Positions 12,324 through 29,190 of a stretch of 64,000 nucleotides of DNA are shown here, one piece after another. The stretch is taken from positions 1 through 64,000 of IMG/VR virus record IMGVR_UViG_3300045988_127883. One strand, given 5' to 3'. The position numbers and the translations under genes are program-made. The DNA comes from a virus. Each line of letters opens with the position of its first letter. The first letter of the stretch is position 1. The notes under the pieces are model-generated. The model saw only the letters and a list, made by a program, of their open reading frames with translations, was not told the origin of the DNA and did no database searches.

Positions 12324-12529
12324 TTAAGCTAAATTAAATCATTTTGAATCTTTTTTATTATCAAAAGGCATATCTTTGTCCAAAAAAACAAACAGAATGG
12401 AAGAAAAAGAGATAAAAGAAGCTATGATTGAAGCTCTGACGCACTTAGAGGGGTGTAAGTATTTCGTGGCCATAATCGAGAATAATGCATAACCCATACA
12501 AATCATAAACAATTTGTATTGTATTATGC

Positions 12530-12772
12530 ATAATAGCCAAAAGCTATTCCGATTATTAGCCTAAGTGTTGAAACAAACACTACGTTATTTAAGAATAGAT
12601 AGTTACCTACGGATGTTTGCCCAAGTTCGTAGCTCTAAGGTAAGTGATTAAACAGTTCTGGTATTCAGGAACAGTGTTGCTTACAAAAAAAACCTTAAAT
12701 AACATTGGCGATGGGTACTAACAGAGTTTCACTCTGACTTATGTTGAATAAACATTAAAAACGTTTGTAGAT
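12530..12772 (+). ncRNA. Omega-RNA / HEARO-like structured element, copy 1, immediately upstream of IscB-1.
   Basis: A scaffold of about 200 nt (tattagcctaag...cattggcgatgggtactaacag...tgactt) is shared by four loci. Its stems covary between copies, for example gtgttgaaacaaacac vs gtgcttcgagcac vs gccttgaaacaaaggc. Placement next to IscB matches the known architecture. Confidence 0.7.
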
Positions 12773-13999
12773 ATGGTGTACGTACAAGACATAAATGGTA
12801 AACCTATGATGCCTACAACAAGGCATGGTAAGGTTAGGAGACTGCTTAAAGACAAAAAGGCAATCGTTGTAAACCTATGTCCGTTTACCATCAAATTAAT
12901 GTACGTAACATCTGATTACAAACAGAAAATTGTATTAGGCGTTGATGCTGGTACTAAACATGTTGGTCTATCGGCTACAACGAAAAGCAAAGAACTTTAC
13001 AGCAGTGAAGTTATTCTTAGAAATGATATCGTAGATCTTTTGTCTACCAGAAGGGAGCTACGAAGATCAAGACGAAATAGATTGAGATATAGAAAACCTC
13101 GTTTTGATAATAGAATAAAAAGTAAGCGTCCGGGATGGGTAGCACCTTCGGTGAAATACAAAGTAGACGCCCATATTCGTGTTATTGACAATGTATGTTC
13201 TATATTACCAATATCTCGTATTGTTATCGAAGTAGCTCAATTTGATACTCAAAAGATTAACAATCCTAATATATCAGGTAAAGAATATCAGGAGGGTGAT
13301 CAACTTGGATTTTGGAACGTTAGGGAATATGTTTTAGCAAGAGATGGACATAAATGCCAGCATTGTAAGGGAAAGTCAAAAGACCCAGTATTGAATGTTC
13401 ATCATATTGAATCACGAAAGACAGGTGGAGATTCCCCATCTAATCTTATTACCTTATGTGAAACTTGTCATAAAGAATACCATAAAGGTAATATAGATTT
13501 AAAGATCAGAAGAGGCAAGTCGCTTCGCGACGCAGCCGTAATGGGAATAATGAAATGGAGATTGTATGAAGAACTAAGGTCTAAATACAACAGAGTTTCT
13601 ATGACTTTCGGTTATGTTACAAAATACAATAGGATTAAACATGGTATTGAAAAATCTCATGTTTTCGATGCATTTGTTATTTCTAAAAACTTTGATGCTA
13701 TAAGGTTAGGATATTATTATAAAGTAAGATTAGTAAGAAGACATAATCGTCAGATCCATAAACAAAAGATTCCAAAAGGAGGGATAAAAAGACCAAATCA
13801 ATCTCCTTTTGAAGTTTTTGGTTTCCGATTGTTTGATAGGGTTATGTTTGAAAACAGTTATTATTTTATATTCGCAAGGCGTAAAACCGGTAGTTTTAAT
13901 ATTCGAGATATTGATGGTAAAAACCAAAGAGATATTACATACAAGAAATTGAAATTATCAAGGTGTAAACGCTTTATGGTACAAAAGGAAATGGATTGA
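12773..13999 (+). CDS. iscB: IscB, the OMEGA RNA-guided nuclease and Cas9 ancestor (408 aa, copy 1).
   Basis: PLMP-like KPMMPT motif. RuvC-I LGVDAGTKHVGLS, Arg-rich bridge RRELRRSRRNRLRYRKPRF and RuvC-II IVIEVAQFD. HNH with zinc CxxC pairs (CQHCKG...NVHHIES...SNLITLCETCHKEYH). RuvC-III SHVFDAFVIS. C-terminal TI-like domain. Confidence 0.85.
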   Translation: MVYVQDINGKPMMPTTRHGKVRRLLKDKKAIVVNLCPFTIKLMYVTSDYKQKIVLGVDAGTKHVGLSATTKSKELYSSEVILRNDIVDLLSTRRELRRSRRNRLRYRKPRFDNRIKSKRPGWVAPSVKYKVDAHIRVIDNVCSILPISRIVIEVAQFDTQKINNPNISGKEYQEGDQLGFWNVREYVLARDGHKCQHCKGKSKDPVLNVHHIESRKTGGDSPSNLITLCETCHKEYHKGNIDLKIRRGKSLRDAAVMGIMKWRLYEELRSKYNRVSMTFGYVTKYNRIKHGIEKSHVFDAFVISKNFDAIRLGYYYKVRLVRRHNRQIHKQKIPKGGIKRPNQSPFEVFGFRLFDRVMFENSYYFIFARRKTGSFNIRDIDGKNQRDITYKKLKLSRCKRFMVQKEMD

Positions 14000-14493
14000 T
14001 TAATTTGAATAAAAATATAGACATGAATCGTTGGTTTGAAATCACAGTAAAAGCCGAGATTGATAATATCGAGAACGGCAAAAAAAAGAAGGTAACTGAA
14101 AAGTATTTGGTAGATGCCTTATCTTATACAGAGGCAGAATCAAGATCTTTAGAGATTTTCAAGGATTTATTTCAAGTGTTCGACATTGTTAAAATAAATC
14201 CTATTAAAGTGTCGGAAATCTTCTTCAACGGAGAAGCTGAGTACTGGTATAAGTGTAAGGTAAATTACATTACACTGGATGAAAAGAAAGGTAAAGAAAA
14301 GAAAACGCCATGCTATATGTATGTCCAGGCCGGCAATCCGAAAGACGCTGAGGCTGTGTTAACTAAAGGTATGCAGGGCACGTTAGGAGACTGGAATTGC
14401 GAAGCTATTGCTGAAACGAAGATCATTGACGTATTCAAATACGATCTTCAGAAGGGAGCTGAAAAATTAGGCGAGAAGAAGAGTGAAGAGTAA
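13996..14493 (+). CDS. Hypothetical protein. The start may be the internal ATG at 14023.
   Basis: The ORF has a TTG start at 13996 and an ATG at 14023. Confidence 0.45.
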   Translation: MINLNKNIDMNRWFEITVKAEIDNIENGKKKKVTEKYLVDALSYTEAESRSLEIFKDLFQVFDIVKINPIKVSEIFFNGEAEYWYKCKVNYITLDEKKGKEKKTPCYMYVQAGNPKDAEAVLTKGMQGTLGDWNCEAIAETKIIDVFKYDLQKGAEKLGEKKSEE

Positions 14494-14722: not shown

Positions 14723-15189
14723 TGATAAGAAGTCATGGCTTATGCCAGGCTTGCAGGAGCAAAGAGTTGACTCCGAAGAAGAAAAACAGAATTACATCCA
14801 TTAAAAACAGCAGCAAGAAGAAAAAGTTAGAGAGCCCGGATTTATCCGGGTTTTTTCGTCTTATGCTGGAAGAGCTAAATAGTATTCGGATGTCTATGAC
14901 TGGTAGGGCTATTCATTTTCCTACAGTATGTAACGTATGTCACATACTTCCGAAAAGGATATATAAGTCGGTTGCCACTTGCAGAGATAATATAGTTTTT
15001 CTACATGAATCGGAGCATACGGTATTCGACATGTATCTTGACCGGATAGAATTTGATAAACTTGAAACAGAATTTCCTTTTGTGTGGAAATATGCGGTAA
15101 AGAAGGTACTGGATATGGAAAGCAGGGGAATGATTAAAGAAAGAGGTAGGTTGATTATTGAAATAATTGACAGATATAACCCCAAATAG
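14668..15189 (+). CDS. Hypothetical zinc-ribbon protein. The start is at 14668 or at the ATGA-coupled ATG at 14722.
   Basis: The N-terminus has CERCGRK...CQAC. There is a 55-nt overlap with the preceding gene. Confidence 0.45.
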   Translation: MESKEKKLYVCERCGRKVMIRSHGLCQACRSKELTPKKKNRITSIKNSSKKKKLESPDLSGFFRLMLEELNSIRMSMTGRAIHFPTVCNVCHILPKRIYKSVATCRDNIVFLHESEHTVFDMYLDRIEFDKLETEFPFVWKYAVKKVLDMESRGMIKERGRLIIEIIDRYNPK

Positions 15190-15271
15190 TATTTGAGAAA
15201 GCAGCCACAGATATTGATGAGACTGTAACTGTGTTGTATTATGTTAAAGAGGAATTAATTGAGAAATTGCG

Positions 15272-18789: not shown

Positions 18790-19065
18790 ATGGGCAGATC
18801 AACAGAGTACTACAGGACTCATCCCGAAGCCAGGAAGAAAAAGGCTAAAAAGGACAAGGAGATAAATGCCAGACCGGAACAGAAAGCCAAACGCCGGGAG
18901 CTTGGTCGTAAAAACTACGAAACGGACAAGAAGAAGGGCAAGGGCTGGAGGAAAGGCAAGGATTGTTCTCATACCAAGAACGGTCTTAGGTATAAATCAG
19001 TAAAAGCTAATAGGGGATCCAAATCGGATACGAAAGGTGACAAAAATGCAAGATCTCCGAAATAA
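18790..19065 (+). CDS. Highly basic small protein (91 aa, Lys/Arg-rich). It may bind nucleic acid.
   Basis: Composition is visibly K/R dominated. Confidence 0.4.
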   Translation: MGRSTEYYRTHPEARKKKAKKDKEINARPEQKAKRRELGRKNYETDKKKGKGWRKGKDCSHTKNGLRYKSVKANRGSKSDTKGDKNARSPK

Positions 19066-19103
19066 TATACAAAAAGACAAATAGAATTTTACTTTTTTGT
19101 ATA

Positions 19104-19350
19104 TCCAGTTTTACTGGCCGGTTATTAGCCTAAGTGCTTCGAGCACTACGTTATCGGAGAATGTATAGTTACCCTGGAGTGTTTATCCAAGCTCCAGGCT
19201 CTAAGGCAGGTGATTAAACAGTATTTGTATTTGGATACAGTGTTGCTTGTAAGAAACCTCTGAATAACATTGGCGATGGGTACTAACAGATTGAAATATA
19301 TCTGACTTACTACGAATAGTAGTTATTAATTAAAAATTAGTTTGTAACAA
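19104..19350 (+). ncRNA. Omega-RNA / HEARO-like structured element, copy 2, upstream of IscB-2.
   Basis: Same conserved scaffold with compensatory stem changes. Ends at the IscB ATG. Confidence 0.7.
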
Positions 19351-20610
19351 ATGGTGTACGTACAAGACATAAATGGTAAACCTATGATGCCTACAACAAG
19401 GCATGGTAAGGTTAGGAGACTGCTTAAAGACAAAAAGGCAGTTGTTGTCAACTTATGTCCGTTTACCATCAAATTAATGTACGTTACATCTGATTACAAA
19501 CAGGAAATTGTGTTAGGCGTTGATGCTGGAACTAAACATGTTGGTCTATCAGCTACGACGAAAAGCAAGGAGCTTTACGCAAGTGAAGTTATTCTGAGAA
19601 ATGATATCATTAATTTGCTTTCGACAAGAAGAGAATTGAGGAAAGCGAGAAGGAATAGGATAAGGTATAGAAAGCCGAGATTTAATAACAGAATAAAGTC
19701 GAAGCGCCAAGGATGGATAGCTCCATCTGTTTGTCAAAAAATTGATTCCCATATTAAGGTTGTCAGTTTTATACATTCTATCCTTCCTGTTTCAAGATTA
19801 ATTATAGAAACTTCTCAGTTTGATACTCAAAAGATTAAGAATCCTGATATATTGGGAAAAGAATACCAGCAAGGCGAGCAACTTGGATTTTGGAATGTTC
19901 GAGAATACATACTTTTTCGTGATGGTCACAAATGCCAGCATTGTAAGGGAAAATCGAAAAATCCTATTCTTAATATCCACCATATCGAATCGCGAAAGAC
20001 TGGTGGAGATTCACCTTCTAATTTGATTACTTTATGTGAAACTTGCCATAAGGAGTACCATAAGGGGAATATTAAATTGAAGGTAAAAAGAGGAACTTCA
20101 CTTCGTGATGCGGCCGCGATGGGAATCATGAAATGGAAGTTATTCGATAAATTGAAGTCATTATATCCAAACGTTAGTATGACATTTGGATATATAACGA
20201 AACATAATCGGATAAAACATAGAATCGAAAAGTCCCATGTTTCTGATGCATTTGTTATCTCAGAGAATTTTAAAGCAAAAAGGCTTGGATATCATTTCAA
20301 GATGAAACTCACACGGAGACATAATAGGCAAATTCATAAAATGAAGATGCAAAAGGGAGGGATCAAAAGAATGAATCAATCACCATTTAGGGTATTTGGG
20401 TTTAGACTATTTGATAAAGTAATGTTTTATGGTGAAAAACGATTTATTTACGCAAGAAGACTTTCTGGTAGTTTTAAAATAAAAGATATAGATGGGGAAA
20501 ATGAGAAAAATATATCATATAAAAAATTAAAATATATAGGACATGGATTGACTTCTATTGAAGTAGATCAATCATATGGATATAAAGCAAATACACATAA
20601 TAACGAATAA
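19351..20610 (+). CDS. iscB: IscB (419 aa, copy 2). It is the most diverged copy and has a C-terminal extension.
   Basis: All motifs as in copy 1 are retained (RuvC-II IIETSQFD, HNH NIHHIES/CETCHKEYH, RuvC-III SHVSDAFVIS). The first ~90 nt are identical to the other copies. Confidence 0.85.
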   Translation: MVYVQDINGKPMMPTTRHGKVRRLLKDKKAVVVNLCPFTIKLMYVTSDYKQEIVLGVDAGTKHVGLSATTKSKELYASEVILRNDIINLLSTRRELRKARRNRIRYRKPRFNNRIKSKRQGWIAPSVCQKIDSHIKVVSFIHSILPVSRLIIETSQFDTQKIKNPDILGKEYQQGEQLGFWNVREYILFRDGHKCQHCKGKSKNPILNIHHIESRKTGGDSPSNLITLCETCHKEYHKGNIKLKVKRGTSLRDAAAMGIMKWKLFDKLKSLYPNVSMTFGYITKHNRIKHRIEKSHVSDAFVISENFKAKRLGYHFKMKLTRRHNRQIHKMKMQKGGIKRMNQSPFRVFGFRLFDKVMFYGEKRFIYARRLSGSFKIKDIDGENEKNISYKKLKYIGHGLTSIEVDQSYGYKANTHNNE

Positions 20611-20615
20611 TCACA

Positions 20616-21746
20616 ATGGAGTTTGGAACATTCGATAACAAAACGACAAAAGTTAACATCCGGAATATTTTCAAAACCTCCAAACAGGTTATGGAAGAGG
20701 CGTATGAGAATATCTTGAAATACAGGCGGGGAGAGCTTATCCCCGCTAAAACCGGATACGATTATATTGATGAGGCTTTGCTTGGAGGTATTTTCCCTCA
20801 GCATGCTATTGCCATAGGAGCCCGGCCATCTGTAGGTAAATCGTATGTGGCCCAAAAGATATTGGAAAATGTGATGAATCCGATGATCAACCCGCAAGCA
20901 GAAGATTATTTTCTTGTTAATTGCGAGTTCGAAATGAATCCTCAAGATCTTCTTCTTCGCAGAATGAGCCAGGATATGAAAAAGCGGGCTCCTGAAATAT
21001 TAAGAAGGCAAGATTCTAATACAGTAGAAGAGATGAGGATGTTTGAAATCCTTCAAGGTGAAATCAGAAATAATATAATATACATCGATGCTCCGTGTAC
21101 GGTAAAAGAGTTTGAGGCGGCTGTGTATCATATAGCTACCAAACATAAAGACAAACGTCTTATAATATTTAAAGTCGATCATATTGCTTTGATAAAAAGA
21201 ATGGGATTAGATCCTAAGTCGGCTATAGATGATTTGGTGGCGGTTATGAACGAAGCTAAATTAGTATATAAAAACATATTTTTCCTCATCATATCCCAAT
21301 TCAACAGAGAAATAGAAGGAAGGATAAAAAGCCCACAAGAGCAGCCTCCGCGTCTTTCTGATTTTTACCAGTCTGATACGCTGGGTCAGTTATGTACGTT
21401 AATGATAGGTTTGCACAATCCTCGTAGGTACGGGCTGGATAAGTATATGATATTTGGGAAAGATTGGTATCAGACTCTTGATAGGTTTAAAACTGAAAAC
21501 AAAACATCATTCAGGACAGCCGGACTTGTGTTTCATCATATACTGAAGGTAAGGCAAGTTAGTATGGAAGAGCTTACTAATACAATCCACCCAGAGATAC
21601 TGCCGGGACATGGATGGATGTACGGGGAGGGCGGGACGAAGTTCGTGAACCCCAACCAGCCGCCGACGCCGCCTAAGCTCTATACTGTGGAAGACGTTAC
21701 GGACAATCAGGAACAAGAGACAAAAAAAGAACAGTCATTGTATTAA
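20616..21746 (+). CDS. DnaB-like replicative helicase, RecA-fold C-terminal domain (376 aa).
   Basis: Walker A GARPSVGKS. DnaB-like SQFNRE (SQLNR) motif. Walker B-like IIFKVDHIAL. Confidence 0.65.
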   Translation: MEFGTFDNKTTKVNIRNIFKTSKQVMEEAYENILKYRRGELIPAKTGYDYIDEALLGGIFPQHAIAIGARPSVGKSYVAQKILENVMNPMINPQAEDYFLVNCEFEMNPQDLLLRRMSQDMKKRAPEILRRQDSNTVEEMRMFEILQGEIRNNIIYIDAPCTVKEFEAAVYHIATKHKDKRLIIFKVDHIALIKRMGLDPKSAIDDLVAVMNEAKLVYKNIFFLIISQFNREIEGRIKSPQEQPPRLSDFYQSDTLGQLCTLMIGLHNPRRYGLDKYMIFGKDWYQTLDRFKTENKTSFRTAGLVFHHILKVRQVSMEELTNTIHPEILPGHGWMYGEGGTKFVNPNQPPTPPKLYTVEDVTDNQEQETKKEQSLY

Positions 21747-25750: not shown

Positions 25751-25944
25751 ATACAATGGCCCAAGGTTACACTTGGGCCTAATTGAAGAAGCAAAAGCAG
25801 CATTTATAGATTTCATGCCAGCAGGAATAGTGATTTTTAGTGCTTTACTAATTACGATATTTTTAACATGGATTTTGGACAAGATTTAGAACCAGAAGAA
25901 CTGACCAAGCATTATGATCAGTGTTATAACCCCAAATAGTATTA

Positions 25945-26240
25945 AACCAATATAATTCTATTATAAAAGTTTAATACATCTCTTTAAGAGATCGGGTTAT
26001 TAGCCTAAGCCTTGAAACAAAGGCTACGTTATTTAAGAATAGATAGTTACCTACGGATGTTTGCCCAAGTCTGTAGCTCTAAGGTAAGTGATTAAACAGT
26101 TCTGGTATTCAGGAACAGTGTTGCTTATTCAAAACCTTAAATAACATTGGCGATGGGTACTTACAGGAGAAATCCTGACTTATCCCTAACGGGATTTACA
26201 TCTACCAAGGAGACCGGAAGGTCTCCGAGGGGATGTATTA
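25945..26240 (+). ncRNA. Orphan omega-RNA / HEARO-like element (copy 3) with no downstream IscB ORF. It ends in a strong hairpin (ggagaccggaaggtctcc).
   Basis: Full conserved scaffold present and closest to copy 1. The next ORF (26284) is unrelated. The 5' flank (25945-25976) is homologous to the copy-4 5' flank. Confidence 0.6.
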
Positions 26241-26283
26241 AAACATATGAATAGCTTTAAATATATTTAATAGAATATGAGAT

Positions 26284-26631
26284 ATGGAATTGATTTTGAA
26301 ACAGAAGAAGAGGAGGATGAAGAGTATGACTGATGAGGAATTTGTATTGGATAATAAGAAAAAGGTTGTTGTAAGAAAAAGAATATCTTATTTAAACAAA
26401 GGTGATAAAGTGTGGATCGTGTCTTCCGATGGGTATCTACTACACACGGACGTAGTTAGAGCCGACCGGGGCCGATCTTATGTGGATATAGACGGGATAC
26501 TGTATTGGAAGCGAGGATTAGATGGCAAACATCGTAATCGTAATAACTACATGCAGTTTGCCATGACACCAGAAGACGGTAAGAAGTATGTCGTATATTA
26601 CCCGGAAGGATTTAAAGACAATGACTTATGA
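26284..26631 (+). CDS. Hypothetical protein (115 aa).
   Basis: Intact ORF. Confidence 0.45.
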   Translation: MELILKQKKRRMKSMTDEEFVLDNKKKVVVRKRISYLNKGDKVWIVSSDGYLLHTDVVRADRGRSYVDIDGILYWKRGLDGKHRNRNNYMQFAMTPEDGKKYVVYYPEGFKDNDL

Positions 26632-27656
26632 TGGTCCCGGAAACACATTTGCTATATAAGGAGTTTAATGGTGTAAAACGTCTTGCCATATCTTATTCCC
26701 AGATAGATACGTTTCTTACCTGTCCAATGAAATGGTATAAGACTTACGTAGAGGGCAAAAGGTCTACAGAAAAACAAGAAGCTACGTCTTATGGTACGGT
26801 TATCCATAAGACACTGGAATACTTTTTTAAGAACGGAAGACAGCCTTCTGGTAAAGACCTTGGAGAAGCAATAAGTTACTATGCTTACCAGGAAGACATA
26901 CCTTGGCAATCACCGGAAAATATGATGATAGCCATGAAACAATCTGGAGAACTTCTTGCTTGGATTGTGGATCTATTTAAAAAAGACGGGAATAGGTTTA
27001 TGATAGCTGATAGTGATCTTAATCCCTGTGAGAAACTTATTAGACACGGCGCTATAGTTGGAGTCGAAGAAGATTTTGTGCTGCCGTACCGTCTTCCTAA
27101 GCCTGTTGATATAAATGGGACCGTTCATACTCATGTGTACATAGTAGGATCGGTGGATCTTCATCTGGCTATAAAGAGCAAGAACGTAGTTCACCATTAT
27201 GTCATAGATTGGAAATCAGGTAATAAGGTTTTTGATTCCAAGAAGTTGGAAACGAATTTACAGCATCCTATATATTCGTTTTACATCTATAGAAAATATG
27301 GTGGGGTTCTGCCAGATATGAACATCTATTTCTTTACCAGGACCAGGCAGTACCAAAAGGTTAAAGTAGATGAAGAACGTAAAACAAAATCTATAGAGAT
27401 GCTAAACGATACATTATCCAAAATGTATGATTTTGAAGATAATAGTGTAAAATCATTTCAAGCGTACATCCAGGGAGCAGAAGGAGCCAGGTATAGCAAG
27501 CGGCGTGCCACCCTAAGCCAGCCTGTTTCGCAAAACAAGCTACCCTGCCCGTCAGCACTGTGTTATTATTGTGACTTTGGATTACATAACAAAAACGAAT
27601 GCCCTTTCTCTTCGGATTGGGATCCGTCTAAAAAGATAAAACGATATCTGAAATAA
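26628..27656 (+). CDS. Cas4-like / RecB-family PD-(D/E)xK nuclease with a Cys cluster (342 aa).
   Basis: N-terminal SYSQIDTFLTCPMKWY. Core VGSVDLHLAIKS...IDWKSG (D...D/E-x-K). C-terminal CPSALCYYC...ECPF. One N-terminal plus three C-terminal Cys is the Cas4-type FeS arrangement. Confidence 0.6.
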   Translation: MMVPETHLLYKEFNGVKRLAISYSQIDTFLTCPMKWYKTYVEGKRSTEKQEATSYGTVIHKTLEYFFKNGRQPSGKDLGEAISYYAYQEDIPWQSPENMMIAMKQSGELLAWIVDLFKKDGNRFMIADSDLNPCEKLIRHGAIVGVEEDFVLPYRLPKPVDINGTVHTHVYIVGSVDLHLAIKSKNVVHHYVIDWKSGNKVFDSKKLETNLQHPIYSFYIYRKYGGVLPDMNIYFFTRTRQYQKVKVDEERKTKSIEMLNDTLSKMYDFEDNSVKSFQAYIQGAEGARYSKRRATLSQPVSQNKLPCPSALCYYCDFGLHNKNECPFSSDWDPSKKIKRYLK

Positions 27657-27932
27657 CATTAAAACAATATAATTCCATTATAAGGTTTTAATGTACCAGA
27701 AATGGTCCGGATATTAGCCTAAGCCTTGAAACATAGGCTACGTTATTTGAGAATATATAGTTACCTACGGATGTTTACCCAAGTCTGTAGCTCTAAGGAT
27801 GGTGATTAAACAACAGTTGTATTTGGATTGTAGTGTTGCTTACTAAAAACCTTAAATAACATTGGCGATGGGTACTAACAGGATGGAATATTCCTGACTT
27901 ATGTTGAATAAACATTAAAAACGTTTGTAGAT
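27657..27932 (+). ncRNA. Omega-RNA / HEARO-like structured element, copy 4, upstream of IscB-3.
   Basis: Same scaffold. It starts directly after the upstream gene's stop codon. The 3' 40 nt plus the start of IscB are identical to copy 1. Confidence 0.7.
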
Positions 27933-29153
27933 ATGGTGTACGTACAAGACATAAATGGTAAACCTATGATGCCTACAACAAGGCATGGTAAGGTTAGGAG
28001 ACTGCTTAAAGACAAAAAGGCAATCGTTGTAAACCTATGTCCGTTTACCATCAAATTAATGTACGTAACATCTGATTACAAACAGAAAATTGTATTAGGC
28101 GTTGATGCTGGTACTAAGCATGTTGGTCTATCAGCTACGACGAAAAGCAAAGAACTTTACGCAAGCGAAGTGACTTTAAGAAATGATATTGTAGATCTTT
28201 TGTCTACCAGAAGAGAGCTACGAAGATCGAGACGAAATAGATTGAGGTATAGAAAACCTCGTTTCAATAATAGAATAAAAAGCAAGCGTCCAGGATGGAT
28301 AGCACCTTCGGTGCAGTACAAAGTAGACGCTCATATTCGTGTTATTGATAATGTTTTTTCTATACTGCCTGTATCCCGTATTGTTATTGAAGTAGCTCAA
28401 TTCGATATACAAAAGATTAAGAATCCTGAGATATTCGGTAAAGAGTATCAGGAGGGTGATCAACTTGGTTTTTGGAACATCAGAGAGTATGTCTTAACAA
28501 GGGATGGACACAAATGCCAGTATTGTAAAGGAAAGTCAAAAGACCCAGTATTGAATGTTCATCATCTTGAGTCTCGAAAAACCGGAGGGGATTCCCCATC
28601 TAATCTTATTACCTTATGTGAAACTTGTCATAAAGAATACCATAAAGGTAATATAGATTTAAAGATCAGAAGAGGCAAGTCGCTTCGCGACGCAGCCGTA
28701 ATGGGGATTATGAAATGGAGGTTGTATGAAGAGTTAAAATCCAGATACGACAGAGTTTCTATGACGTTTGGTTACATCACGAAACATAATCGGATTAAAT
28801 ACGGGATTGAAAAATCCCATACATCCGACGCGTTTGTCATTTCTAAGAACATTAATGCGAAACGAATCGAACGTCAATATTTAAAACGTTTAATTCGTAG
28901 ACATAATAGACAAATACATAAAATGAAAATTTTAAAAGGAGGGAAGAAGAAAAACAATCAAGCTCCTTTTGAGGTTTTCGGATTTAGATTGTTTGATAAA
29001 GTGTTGTATGATAATAAAATATGTTTTGTTTATGGAAGGAGAAAATCAGGGAATTTCAATATCAGGGATTTCAACGGAGAAAACCCGAAGGATGTTTCAC
29101 GCAAAAAGTTTAAACTCATTAGAGGGAAGAGGCATCCGATTATATTAAAGTAA
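27933..29153 (+). CDS. iscB: IscB (406 aa, copy 3).
   Basis: Same motif set (RuvC-II IVIEVAQFD, HNH NVHHLES/CETCHKEYH, RuvC-III SHTSDAFVIS). About 185 nt at the 5' end are identical to copy 1, then it diverges. Confidence 0.85.
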   Translation: MVYVQDINGKPMMPTTRHGKVRRLLKDKKAIVVNLCPFTIKLMYVTSDYKQKIVLGVDAGTKHVGLSATTKSKELYASEVTLRNDIVDLLSTRRELRRSRRNRLRYRKPRFNNRIKSKRPGWIAPSVQYKVDAHIRVIDNVFSILPVSRIVIEVAQFDIQKIKNPEIFGKEYQEGDQLGFWNIREYVLTRDGHKCQYCKGKSKDPVLNVHHLESRKTGGDSPSNLITLCETCHKEYHKGNIDLKIRRGKSLRDAAVMGIMKWRLYEELKSRYDRVSMTFGYITKHNRIKYGIEKSHTSDAFVISKNINAKRIERQYLKRLIRRHNRQIHKMKILKGGKKKNNQAPFEVFGFRLFDKVLYDNKICFVYGRRKSGNFNIRDFNGENPKDVSRKKFKLIRGKRHPIILK

Positions 29154-29190
29154 ATGAATAGATTTAATAAATTTAATAGAAAAACGCATT

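Follow-up and report, generated by a model that had tools for sequence, protein, structure and literature searches.

An omega RNA scaffold that is not followed by an IscB gene raises the question of what such an RNA is for: it could be a guide used by IscB proteins encoded elsewhere, the footprint of a deleted nuclease gene, or an inert copy of a mobile element. An orphan scaffold of this kind lies in a stretch of viral DNA of 64,000 nucleotides (IMG/VR record IMGVR_UViG_3300045988_127883, positions 1 to 64,000), referred to here as the window, which shares about 95% identity with csAssE-Sib (OR575929.1), a phage of the human gut. An Rfam search of the window returned four matches to the HEARO family (RF02033), each of which exceeds the gathering score (83 bits) and spans model positions 1-211, and no RNA family other than HEARO was found in the window at E <= 0.1 (Table 1). 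Three of the matches precede IscB ORFs that start 51-64 nt after the omega RNA. These ORFs (408, 419 and 406 aa) are all intact, contain the Pfam domains RRXRR and HNH, and encode proteins that are mutually 76-83% identical. The fourth match is the orphan, which at 112.9 bits scores about as high as the best of the three IscB-linked copies and shows no truncation. The preliminary description of the locus, made from the sequence, had called it a fourth complete copy of the scaffold without an IscB gene behind it, and both statements are borne out, as the next ORF in the ORF listing is one of 115 aa (26284-26631) for which a Pfam search gave no match.

Table 1. Coordinates of the orphan mini-element, its parts and related features in the window, counted from the first nucleotide of the window.
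Feature	Position	Strand	Description
Whole ORF-less mini-element	25926..26283	+	358 bp, ATAACCCC...GAGAT; clean insertion versus OR575929.1
Omega RNA scaffold of the mini-element	25926..26164	+	full-length Rfam HEARO RF02033 match, 112.9 bits; no IscB ORF after
Scaffold 5' domain	25926..26000	+	folding, covariation in 36 ORF-less copies, homology to the IscB-3-linked copy
Scaffold 3' extension past the Rfam model	26165..26196	+	alignment with the three IscB-linked copies and folding
Two-part GC-rich long hairpin	26197..26237	+	folding; in all three ORF-less subfamilies
A/T-rich right-end tail	26238..26283	+	homologous to the IscB-3 tail, 29154-29190
Predicted guide segment CATTATGATCAGTGTT	25910..25925	+	16 nt of phage DNA abutting the scaffold on its 5' side
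ATG abutting the element on its 3' side	26284..26286	+	predicted TAM of the empty allele; first ATG of the 115-aa ORF
IscB-1 element	12472..14022	+	omega RNA 12530-12722; 408-aa ORF 12773-13999
IscB-2 element	19054..20666 (ends approximate)	+	omega RNA 19062-19287; 419-aa ORF 19351-20610
IscB-3 element	27644..29190	+	omega RNA 27669-27879; 406-aa ORF 27933-29153
HEARO match	12530-12722		113.1 bits; then IscB-1 ORF
HEARO match	19062-19287		100.9 bits; then IscB-2 ORF
HEARO match	27669-27879		93.8 bits; then IscB-3 ORF
ORF-less mini-element remnant	15176..15193	+	18 nt, ATAACCCCAAATAGTATT; second site

Comparison with csAssE-Sib identifies the segment as a discrete mobile element with defined ends, which had been missed in the preliminary description. 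The two flanks abut in csAssE-Sib (...CATTATGATCAGTGTT|ATGGAATTGATTTTG), and the window carries 358 extra bases between them; the mini-element is accordingly assigned to 25926-26283 instead of the interval 25945-26240 given at first. Its boundary is ambiguous by 2-3 nt because an AT/TAT repeat is present at both junctions, and a placement at 25928-26285 is equally valid; the insertion shows no long target duplication. No ORF of at least 40 aa was found inside 25926-26283 on either strand. The scaffold is complete at the left end of the element, where the boundary coincides with HEARO model position 1, and the element is oriented like the flanking phage genes, with its insertion point directly before an ATG. 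That the orphan appeared to start precisely where the upstream gene has its stop codon turns out to be incidental, since the orphan starts at 25926 and itself supplies the TAG at 25937-25939. Likewise, the exonuclease frame reaches 13 nt into the IscB-3 element, because that element starts at 27644.

The fold of the whole orphan RNA has a z-score of -5.5 compared to shuffled sequence, and in its 5' domain a P1 stem (ATAACCC/GGGTTAT) encloses the stems GTATTAAAC/GTTTAATAC and ATCTC/GAGAT. The P1 stem covaries, as it reads ATATCTG/CGGATAT in the IscB-3-linked copy, and both P1 and the inner stems covary among 36 distinct ORF-less copies, in which 22 of the 112 predicted pairs show compensatory double changes. 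One scaffold stem exists in five pair versions among the ORF-less copies, and the differences from copy to copy are largely compensatory. Furthermore, 12 of 14 ORF-less copies from other contigs pass the HEARO gathering score (88.8-113.8 bits). In its core, the orphan scaffold shares 89% identity with the omega RNA of IscB-1, compared to 85% with the IscB-3 one and 70% with the IscB-2 one, in line with the earlier statement that it is closest to the IscB-1-linked copy. A resemblance to the IscB-3-linked copy at the 5' side had also been described, as a shared 5' flank; the homology is real (57%, compared to 32% for the IscB-1-linked copy), but what is shared is the 5' domain of the element and not its flank. 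Overall, the 5' domain and the tail of the IscB-3 element are the closest to those of the orphan. Past the Rfam model, the 3' extension contains the hairpin AGGAG-AAAT-CCT and a stretch, GACTTATCCC, that pairs back to GATGGGT, as well as a TCCC..GGGA motif that is typical of ORF-less copies.

The 3' extension is followed by the strong terminal hairpin that had already been recognised in the first description (TACATCT.CC..GGAGACC-GGAA-GGTCTCC..GG.GGATGTA), with an outer stem formed by 26197-26202 and 26232-26237 and an inner stem formed by 26209-26215 and 26220-26226. The folding energy of this 3' module is -39 kcal/mol, with a z-score of -5.1. A long hairpin is common to the three ORF-less subfamilies, although its sequence differs between them. 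ORF-bearing copies have no such hairpin between the omega RNA and the ATG (fold z about 0); a comparable hairpin occurs after the IscB stop codon in some ORF-bearing lineages. The hairpin variants CCTC..GAGG and CCAA..TTGG each close an internal mismatch. Within subfamily 1, covariation in the hairpin is not distinguishable from shuffles, because 14 of its 18 pairs are invariant. The hairpin was also considered as an intrinsic (Rho-independent) terminator, but it was not reported by the terminator scan and is followed by TTAAAAC, without a U-tract. T-rich tails follow the hairpin in the other two ORF-less subfamilies (ATTTTTAT and TTTTAAAG). The orphan tail, ATGAATAGCTTTAAATATATTTAATAGAATATGAGAT, is homologous by direct comparison to the IscB-3 tail, ATGAATAGATTTAATAAATTTAATAGAAAAACGCATT, which consists of the last 37 nt of that element, downstream of the stop codon. 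It also contains a weak promoter-like match at 26238-26267.

To place the insertion in its population context, 80 IMG/VR loci (of at least 228 related contigs; loci are numbered with the prefix L) were collected via the neighbouring exonuclease gene. The site is empty in 63 of the related contigs and holds the same ORF-less unit in about 16, with the occupying units measuring 357-368 bp, and none of them has an IscB ORF there. Two of the copies have decayed: the scaffold core of L050 was lost through a 161-bp microhomology deletion, and L040 has lost the hairpin. In 10 of 17 occupied alleles the guide region carries a G (GATCGGTGTT) that is seen in none of 64 empty alleles; guides with this G would mismatch all sampled targets, because no empty allele has it. 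In 10 of 64 empty alleles (L004-L083), SNPs were also observed among the three bases that precede the ATG (..CAGTATT, ..CAGTGTC). Both the guide-region and the pre-ATG SNPs may be escape or hitch-hiking variants. A different kind of variation is found in five loci (L032, L033, L040, L056 and L166) that share the right flank at window position 26284 but have the left junction of the mini-element shifted upstream, with losses of phage DNA that range from 12 nt to about 2.4 kb; L040, for instance, is devoid of the flotillin and NfeD-like genes. The shifted left junction lies at another native N|ATG site in four of these five loci, and such junctions could have arisen by recombination after two insertions, or by a one-ended event.

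The empty alleles reveal a target rule that is shared by the whole family. When every family insertion site with an unoccupied allele in the collection is considered, the unoccupied allele reads ATG immediately after the left flank at 23 of about 27 sites (loci L004-L452), and the exceptions look like secondary deletions. The fourth base after the left flank can be any nucleotide. Occupied alleles read flank|ATA instead, ATA being the first bases of every element type. The rule is common to ORF-bearing and ORF-less types: an ATG comes next at all six right junctions of subfamily 1, and in the window ATGs lie directly 3' of family elements at 26284, 29191 and 14023. The rule is likewise obeyed at ATGs other than start codons, as seen at the alternative left junctions in L032, L040 and L056, which argues that the ATG is a mechanistic requirement beyond selection for intergenic sites. 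In IscB systems, the guide is encoded just outside the omega RNA-side end of the element and is 16 nt long, the length adopted here for the guide segment, while the TAM lies 3' of the target. According to Meers et al. (bioRxiv 10.1101/2023.03.14.532601), a transposon end bounds the omega RNA region of iscB elements. On the basis of this end placement and the IscB layout, ATG is predicted to be the TAM of the family and CATTATGATCAGTGTT (25910-25925) the guide of the mini-element. Self-targeting within the window was rejected, as CATTATGATCAGTGTT occurs once and there is no second guide match in the window with fewer than three mismatches.

The mini-element of the window belongs to a family that is spread over many sites in phage contigs. 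A scan of viral contigs with an invariant scaffold 18-mer retrieved at least 120 stretches; among the matches listed, about three quarters of the copies are followed by an IscB ORF and about a quarter are ORF-less. The 357-368 bp mini-element is present in about 40 copies among the IMG/VR contigs listed. The unit found in the window precedes six different genes, with the same internal junction at each of these six right-flank sites (subfamily 1), and two further ORF-less subfamilies together with a related copy in L118 occupy other sites. All ORF-less subfamilies share one layout, consisting of the scaffold, the TCCC..GGGA motif, the two-part GC-rich hairpin and a short A/T-rich tail. The homology of the tail to that of IscB-3 and the post-stop hairpins of ORF-bearing lineages make an internal ORF deletion the simplest history, in which an ancestral element would have lost its ORF while keeping both ends, and the ORF-less product would then have spread. 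A truncated copy of another kind, distinct from the ORF-less mini-elements, was observed in L186 (IMGVR_UViG_3300045988_117662), where a deletion in an IscB-1-type copy has fused the omega RNA, at a point immediately behind GGCGATGGGTAC, to about codon 60 of IscB.

Outside the gut phage contigs the family is scarce. An 18-mer scan of 185,579 bacterial genomes, also considered as a source of a parent element or a TnpA, yielded two true family members only, L207 and L209, which are both ORF-bearing; nine other matches are due to chance. L207 (NZ_JBHMEP010000019.1, a 20-kb contig of Vibrio olivae CECT 8064) contains an IscB element of the gut-phage family with a 406-aa IscB and a near-identical omega RNA. 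Such an element is unexpected in a Vibrio assembly, and L207 may represent contamination or a phage contig. Among deposited phage genomes the mini-element is absent save for two weak partial matches, and the site in csAssE-Sib is empty.

Several other places in the window bear traces of family elements. At the 15176 remnant, the window lacks the remainder of the element as well as ~110 nt from the start of the adjacent small gene, both lost by deletion; csAssE-Sib reads ATGAGAAAAC at this site, and the same left flank is followed by a complete 368-bp mini-element in L117, L148 and L151 and by one with a shortened tail in L119. A 56-aa gene that follows the exonuclease gene in csAssE-Sib and about 50 relatives is missing from the window (27644-29190, compared to L002 17184-17354), where the left junction of the IscB-3 element lies at the ATG of the missing gene and the right junction at the ATG of the next gene. 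Downstream of IscB-2 (20611-20690), the first ~20 codons of the DnaB-like helicase gene are wholly unlike those of csAssE-Sib (MEFGTFDNKTTKVNIRNIF... versus MHEEIANRIDIRRIF...), and the IscB-2 element seems to have brought or replaced the 5' end of this gene. Finally, the C-terminal codons and tail of IscB-1 (13983-14022) are homologous to a 23-aa 'gene' (MDVLQWC...) located upstream of the DUF4494 gene in csAssE-Sib (L002 ~29130-29180) and others (site D in L152/L165). An IscB-1-type element may have left this 23-aa ORF behind as a vestige of its right end.

How the mini-element moves was approached through its ends and through the transposases present in the phage pool. A tblastn search of the window with approximate query sequences found no tnpA. 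In 17 contigs of the same pool (L145, L453-L468) a Y1/HUH transposase of 132 aa is encoded (Pfam Y1_Tnp, 132.6 bits), and in two of the 17 there are IscB genes and ORF-less omega RNA copies as well. This TnpA was considered as the mobiliser, but the end of its element (..GATCGTAAA) is unrelated to those of the mini-element (ATAACCCC... / ...GAATATGAGAT). A conserved divergent region beside the transposase gene is probably tnpB, and the transposase itself seems to be part of a different, IS605-like element, possibly of the tnpB type. The mini-element has hairpins near both of its ends, unlike the end of the sole tnpA-bearing element found in the phage pool. Given the unrelated TnpA ends and the near-absence of the family from bacterial and deposited phage genomes, spread by IscB-driven homing between co-infecting phages is an attractive possibility.

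With regard to function, the best-supported reading is that of a trans-acting guide RNA for IscB proteins encoded elsewhere, as one of the two alternatives in the preliminary description had it. The evidence for it is indirect and consists of the intact scaffold, the three intact IscB genes of the window and the enrichment of such copies in contigs that carry IscB. More specifically, we consider it moderately probable that the mini-element is a non-autonomous, ORF-less derivative of an IscB-type IS200/IS605 element whose RNA is loaded in trans by a resident IscB and directs the cutting of empty alleles. Read-through transcription from the upstream phage genes would produce an RNA composed of the 16-nt left flank CATTATGATCAGTGTT and the scaffold, the 3' end of which could be defined or protected by the GC-rich hairpin. 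One of the resident IscBs, most likely IscB-1 or IscB-3, would load this RNA in trans; IscB-1 is the best candidate, as its omega RNA is the one most similar to the orphan core, at the 89% identity given above. The complex would then cut alleles without the insertion (...CATTATGATCAGTGTT|ATGG...), be it those of a co-infecting relative or those left by excision, and recombinational repair from an occupied genome would copy the mini-element back in, so that it homes or is retained. Occupied alleles would escape cutting, since the ATA of the element stands where the ATG was.

The distribution of IscB genes is consistent with such a dependence. Among the IscB loci listed, an IscB gene is present in 11 of 15 contigs with the mini-element compared to 19 of 63 contigs in which the site is empty (Fisher odds ratio 6.4, p = 0.003, with contigs counted regardless of shared ancestry), and the remaining 4 of the 15 carrier contigs have no IscB gene among the matches listed. 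Co-adaptation between the mini-element core and the omega RNAs of resident IscBs was not seen, with 82.4% for resident versus 82.0% for non-resident ones (9/19). Gene conversion that would match the orphan to a resident IscB-linked omega RNA was considered as well and gave no signal in the same comparison.

The distribution and decay of the copies bear directly on three other explanations. According to the alternative offered in the preliminary description, the orphan is the footprint of an IscB element that once stood at this very site and lost its ORF there. The mini-element does keep sequences like both ends of IscB-3-type elements, and truncated or frameshifted IscB ORFs exist elsewhere in the family, for example in L186. 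However, an IscB ORF is found between CATTATGATCAGTGTT and ATGGAATTG in none of about 80 relatives, the identical ORF-less unit with the same internal junction occurs at five or more other sites, and this 5' domain is present in no ORF-bearing copy sampled. Because the relatives have no IscB ORF there and the same junction recurs elsewhere, the ORF was lost before the unit reached the site, and deletion in place is thus very improbable. A more serious contender, although still rather unlikely in our estimation, is that the unit is an inert passenger, i.e. a dead, internally deleted copy that was moved or recombined into the site and has not yet decayed, so that any RNA made from it would be inactive. 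Decayed forms are indeed found (the L050 copy without its core, the L040 copy without its hairpin and the 18-nt remnant at 15176-15193 of the window), the cores are not matched to the resident IscB-linked omega RNAs, most occupied alleles have a guide SNP that is absent from empty ones, and the site is empty in about 79% of relatives. On the other hand, the scaffold is full-length in nearly all of the ~40 copies, 12 of the 14 tested exceed the gathering score, and the differences between copies are largely compensatory. Scaffold, hairpin and tail are moreover retained in three divergent ORF-less subfamilies, and chance deletions are hard to credit for one layout kept three times. The enrichment of mini-element copies in IscB-carrying contigs and the published function in trans of standalone omega RNAs (PMC10691335) further argue against an inert unit.

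It could also be that the insertion has been domesticated by the phage, with the orphan guide allowing its IscB to attack competitors without the insertion, as a weapon or exclusion device, or with the hairpin and tail serving as a terminator/promoter cassette for the downstream gene. In agreement with this, the target is a conserved gene start that is unprotected in 63 of 80 relatives, the SNPs in the last three pre-ATG bases of 10 of 64 empty alleles could be escape variants, the element always lies directly before an ATG in the orientation of the gene, and the tail holds the weak promoter-like match. Yet cutting of empty alleles is indistinguishable from selfish homing in these data, and the insertion is patchy and of low frequency, as expected of a selfish element. 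Furthermore, the hairpin without a U-tract is not scored as a terminator, and genomes with an empty site express the same gene without the element. Domestication is regarded as improbable.

The preferred reading, a guide RNA acting in trans, has precedents. Standalone omega RNAs without an effector or transposase gene exist in genomes that contain effector loci and work in trans (PMC10691335; for IscB: PMC9581776), and both papers credit the standalone omega RNAs of the OMEGA (IscB/TnpB) systems to Altae-Tran et al. 2021. That standalone omega RNAs can be used in trans is thus an already established concept. Like these RNAs, the orphan has no adjacent effector or transposase gene, has evidently been mobilised to several sites and coexists with effector loci in the same genome. 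It differs in that it resides in a gut phage genome rather than a bacterial chromosome and in that its long 3' hairpin is family-specific, and its activity in trans is inferred. PATE-like elements, which encode omega RNAs as well (Meers et al., bioRxiv 10.1101/2023.03.14.532601), similarly have both transposon ends but no protein gene, and their RNA needs a nuclease from another element. However, PATE-like elements are known from Geobacillus, mainly concern TnpB and are excised by a cognate TnpA, whereas no TnpA compatible with the orphan was found in the window or the phage pool. An omega RNA region bounded by a transposon end is a feature that the orphan shares with the iscB elements of Meers et al.

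Compared to the canonical IscB omega RNA, i.e. HEARO (RF02033) located upstream of an IscB ORF, the orphan matches the model over its full length with a high score but is not followed by an ORF. Its 3' part consists of the TCCC..GGGA motif and the GC-rich hairpin, whereas canonical HEARO has a TGTT-GAATA-AACA hairpin and the IscB start region. The orphan also resembles phage homing endonuclease genes and mobile introns (intron and intronless homing, reviewed in PMC13565253) in its presence or absence at a precise site in a conserved gene region, and its predicted spread resembles that of phage homing endonucleases, in which the empty allele is cut in co-infection and repaired from the occupied genome. 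The recognition would, however, be RNA-guided, and the nuclease would be supplied from another locus. The orphan fits the standalone omega RNA/PATE-like category on every tested feature save the cognate transposase. New here are the occurrence in a phage, the 3' hairpin that the ORF-less lineages conserve and the ATG target rule.

A broader proposal, which we put forward only tentatively and hold to be fairly unlikely, is that gut phages carry ORF-less omega RNA units as 'guide-only' gene-drive modules, and that each unit supplies a resident IscB with an additional target, an ATG-adjacent site in a conserved phage gene region. With a single nuclease gene, homing would be driven at many loci and competitors would be cut at several places in a co-infection. 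The spread of the family among the phages would depend little, if at all, on a transposase, and the conserved 3' hairpin would have evolved to suit an RNA that exists on its own.

If the orphan RNA works in trans, a phage genome would house an RNA-guided homing system in two distinct kinds of module, 'guide-only' and 'nuclease + guide'. The population data provide testable predictions for a compact IscB family of 406-419 aa, namely a very short TAM (ATG) and an exact 16-nt natural target, and the occupied and empty alleles form a ready-made pair for a homing assay. Homing of OMEGA transposons into co-infecting phages is treated as theoretical in the literature (PMC13565253), and the mini-element would, if the reading is true, provide a case from nature of OMEGA elements passing from one co-infecting virus to another.
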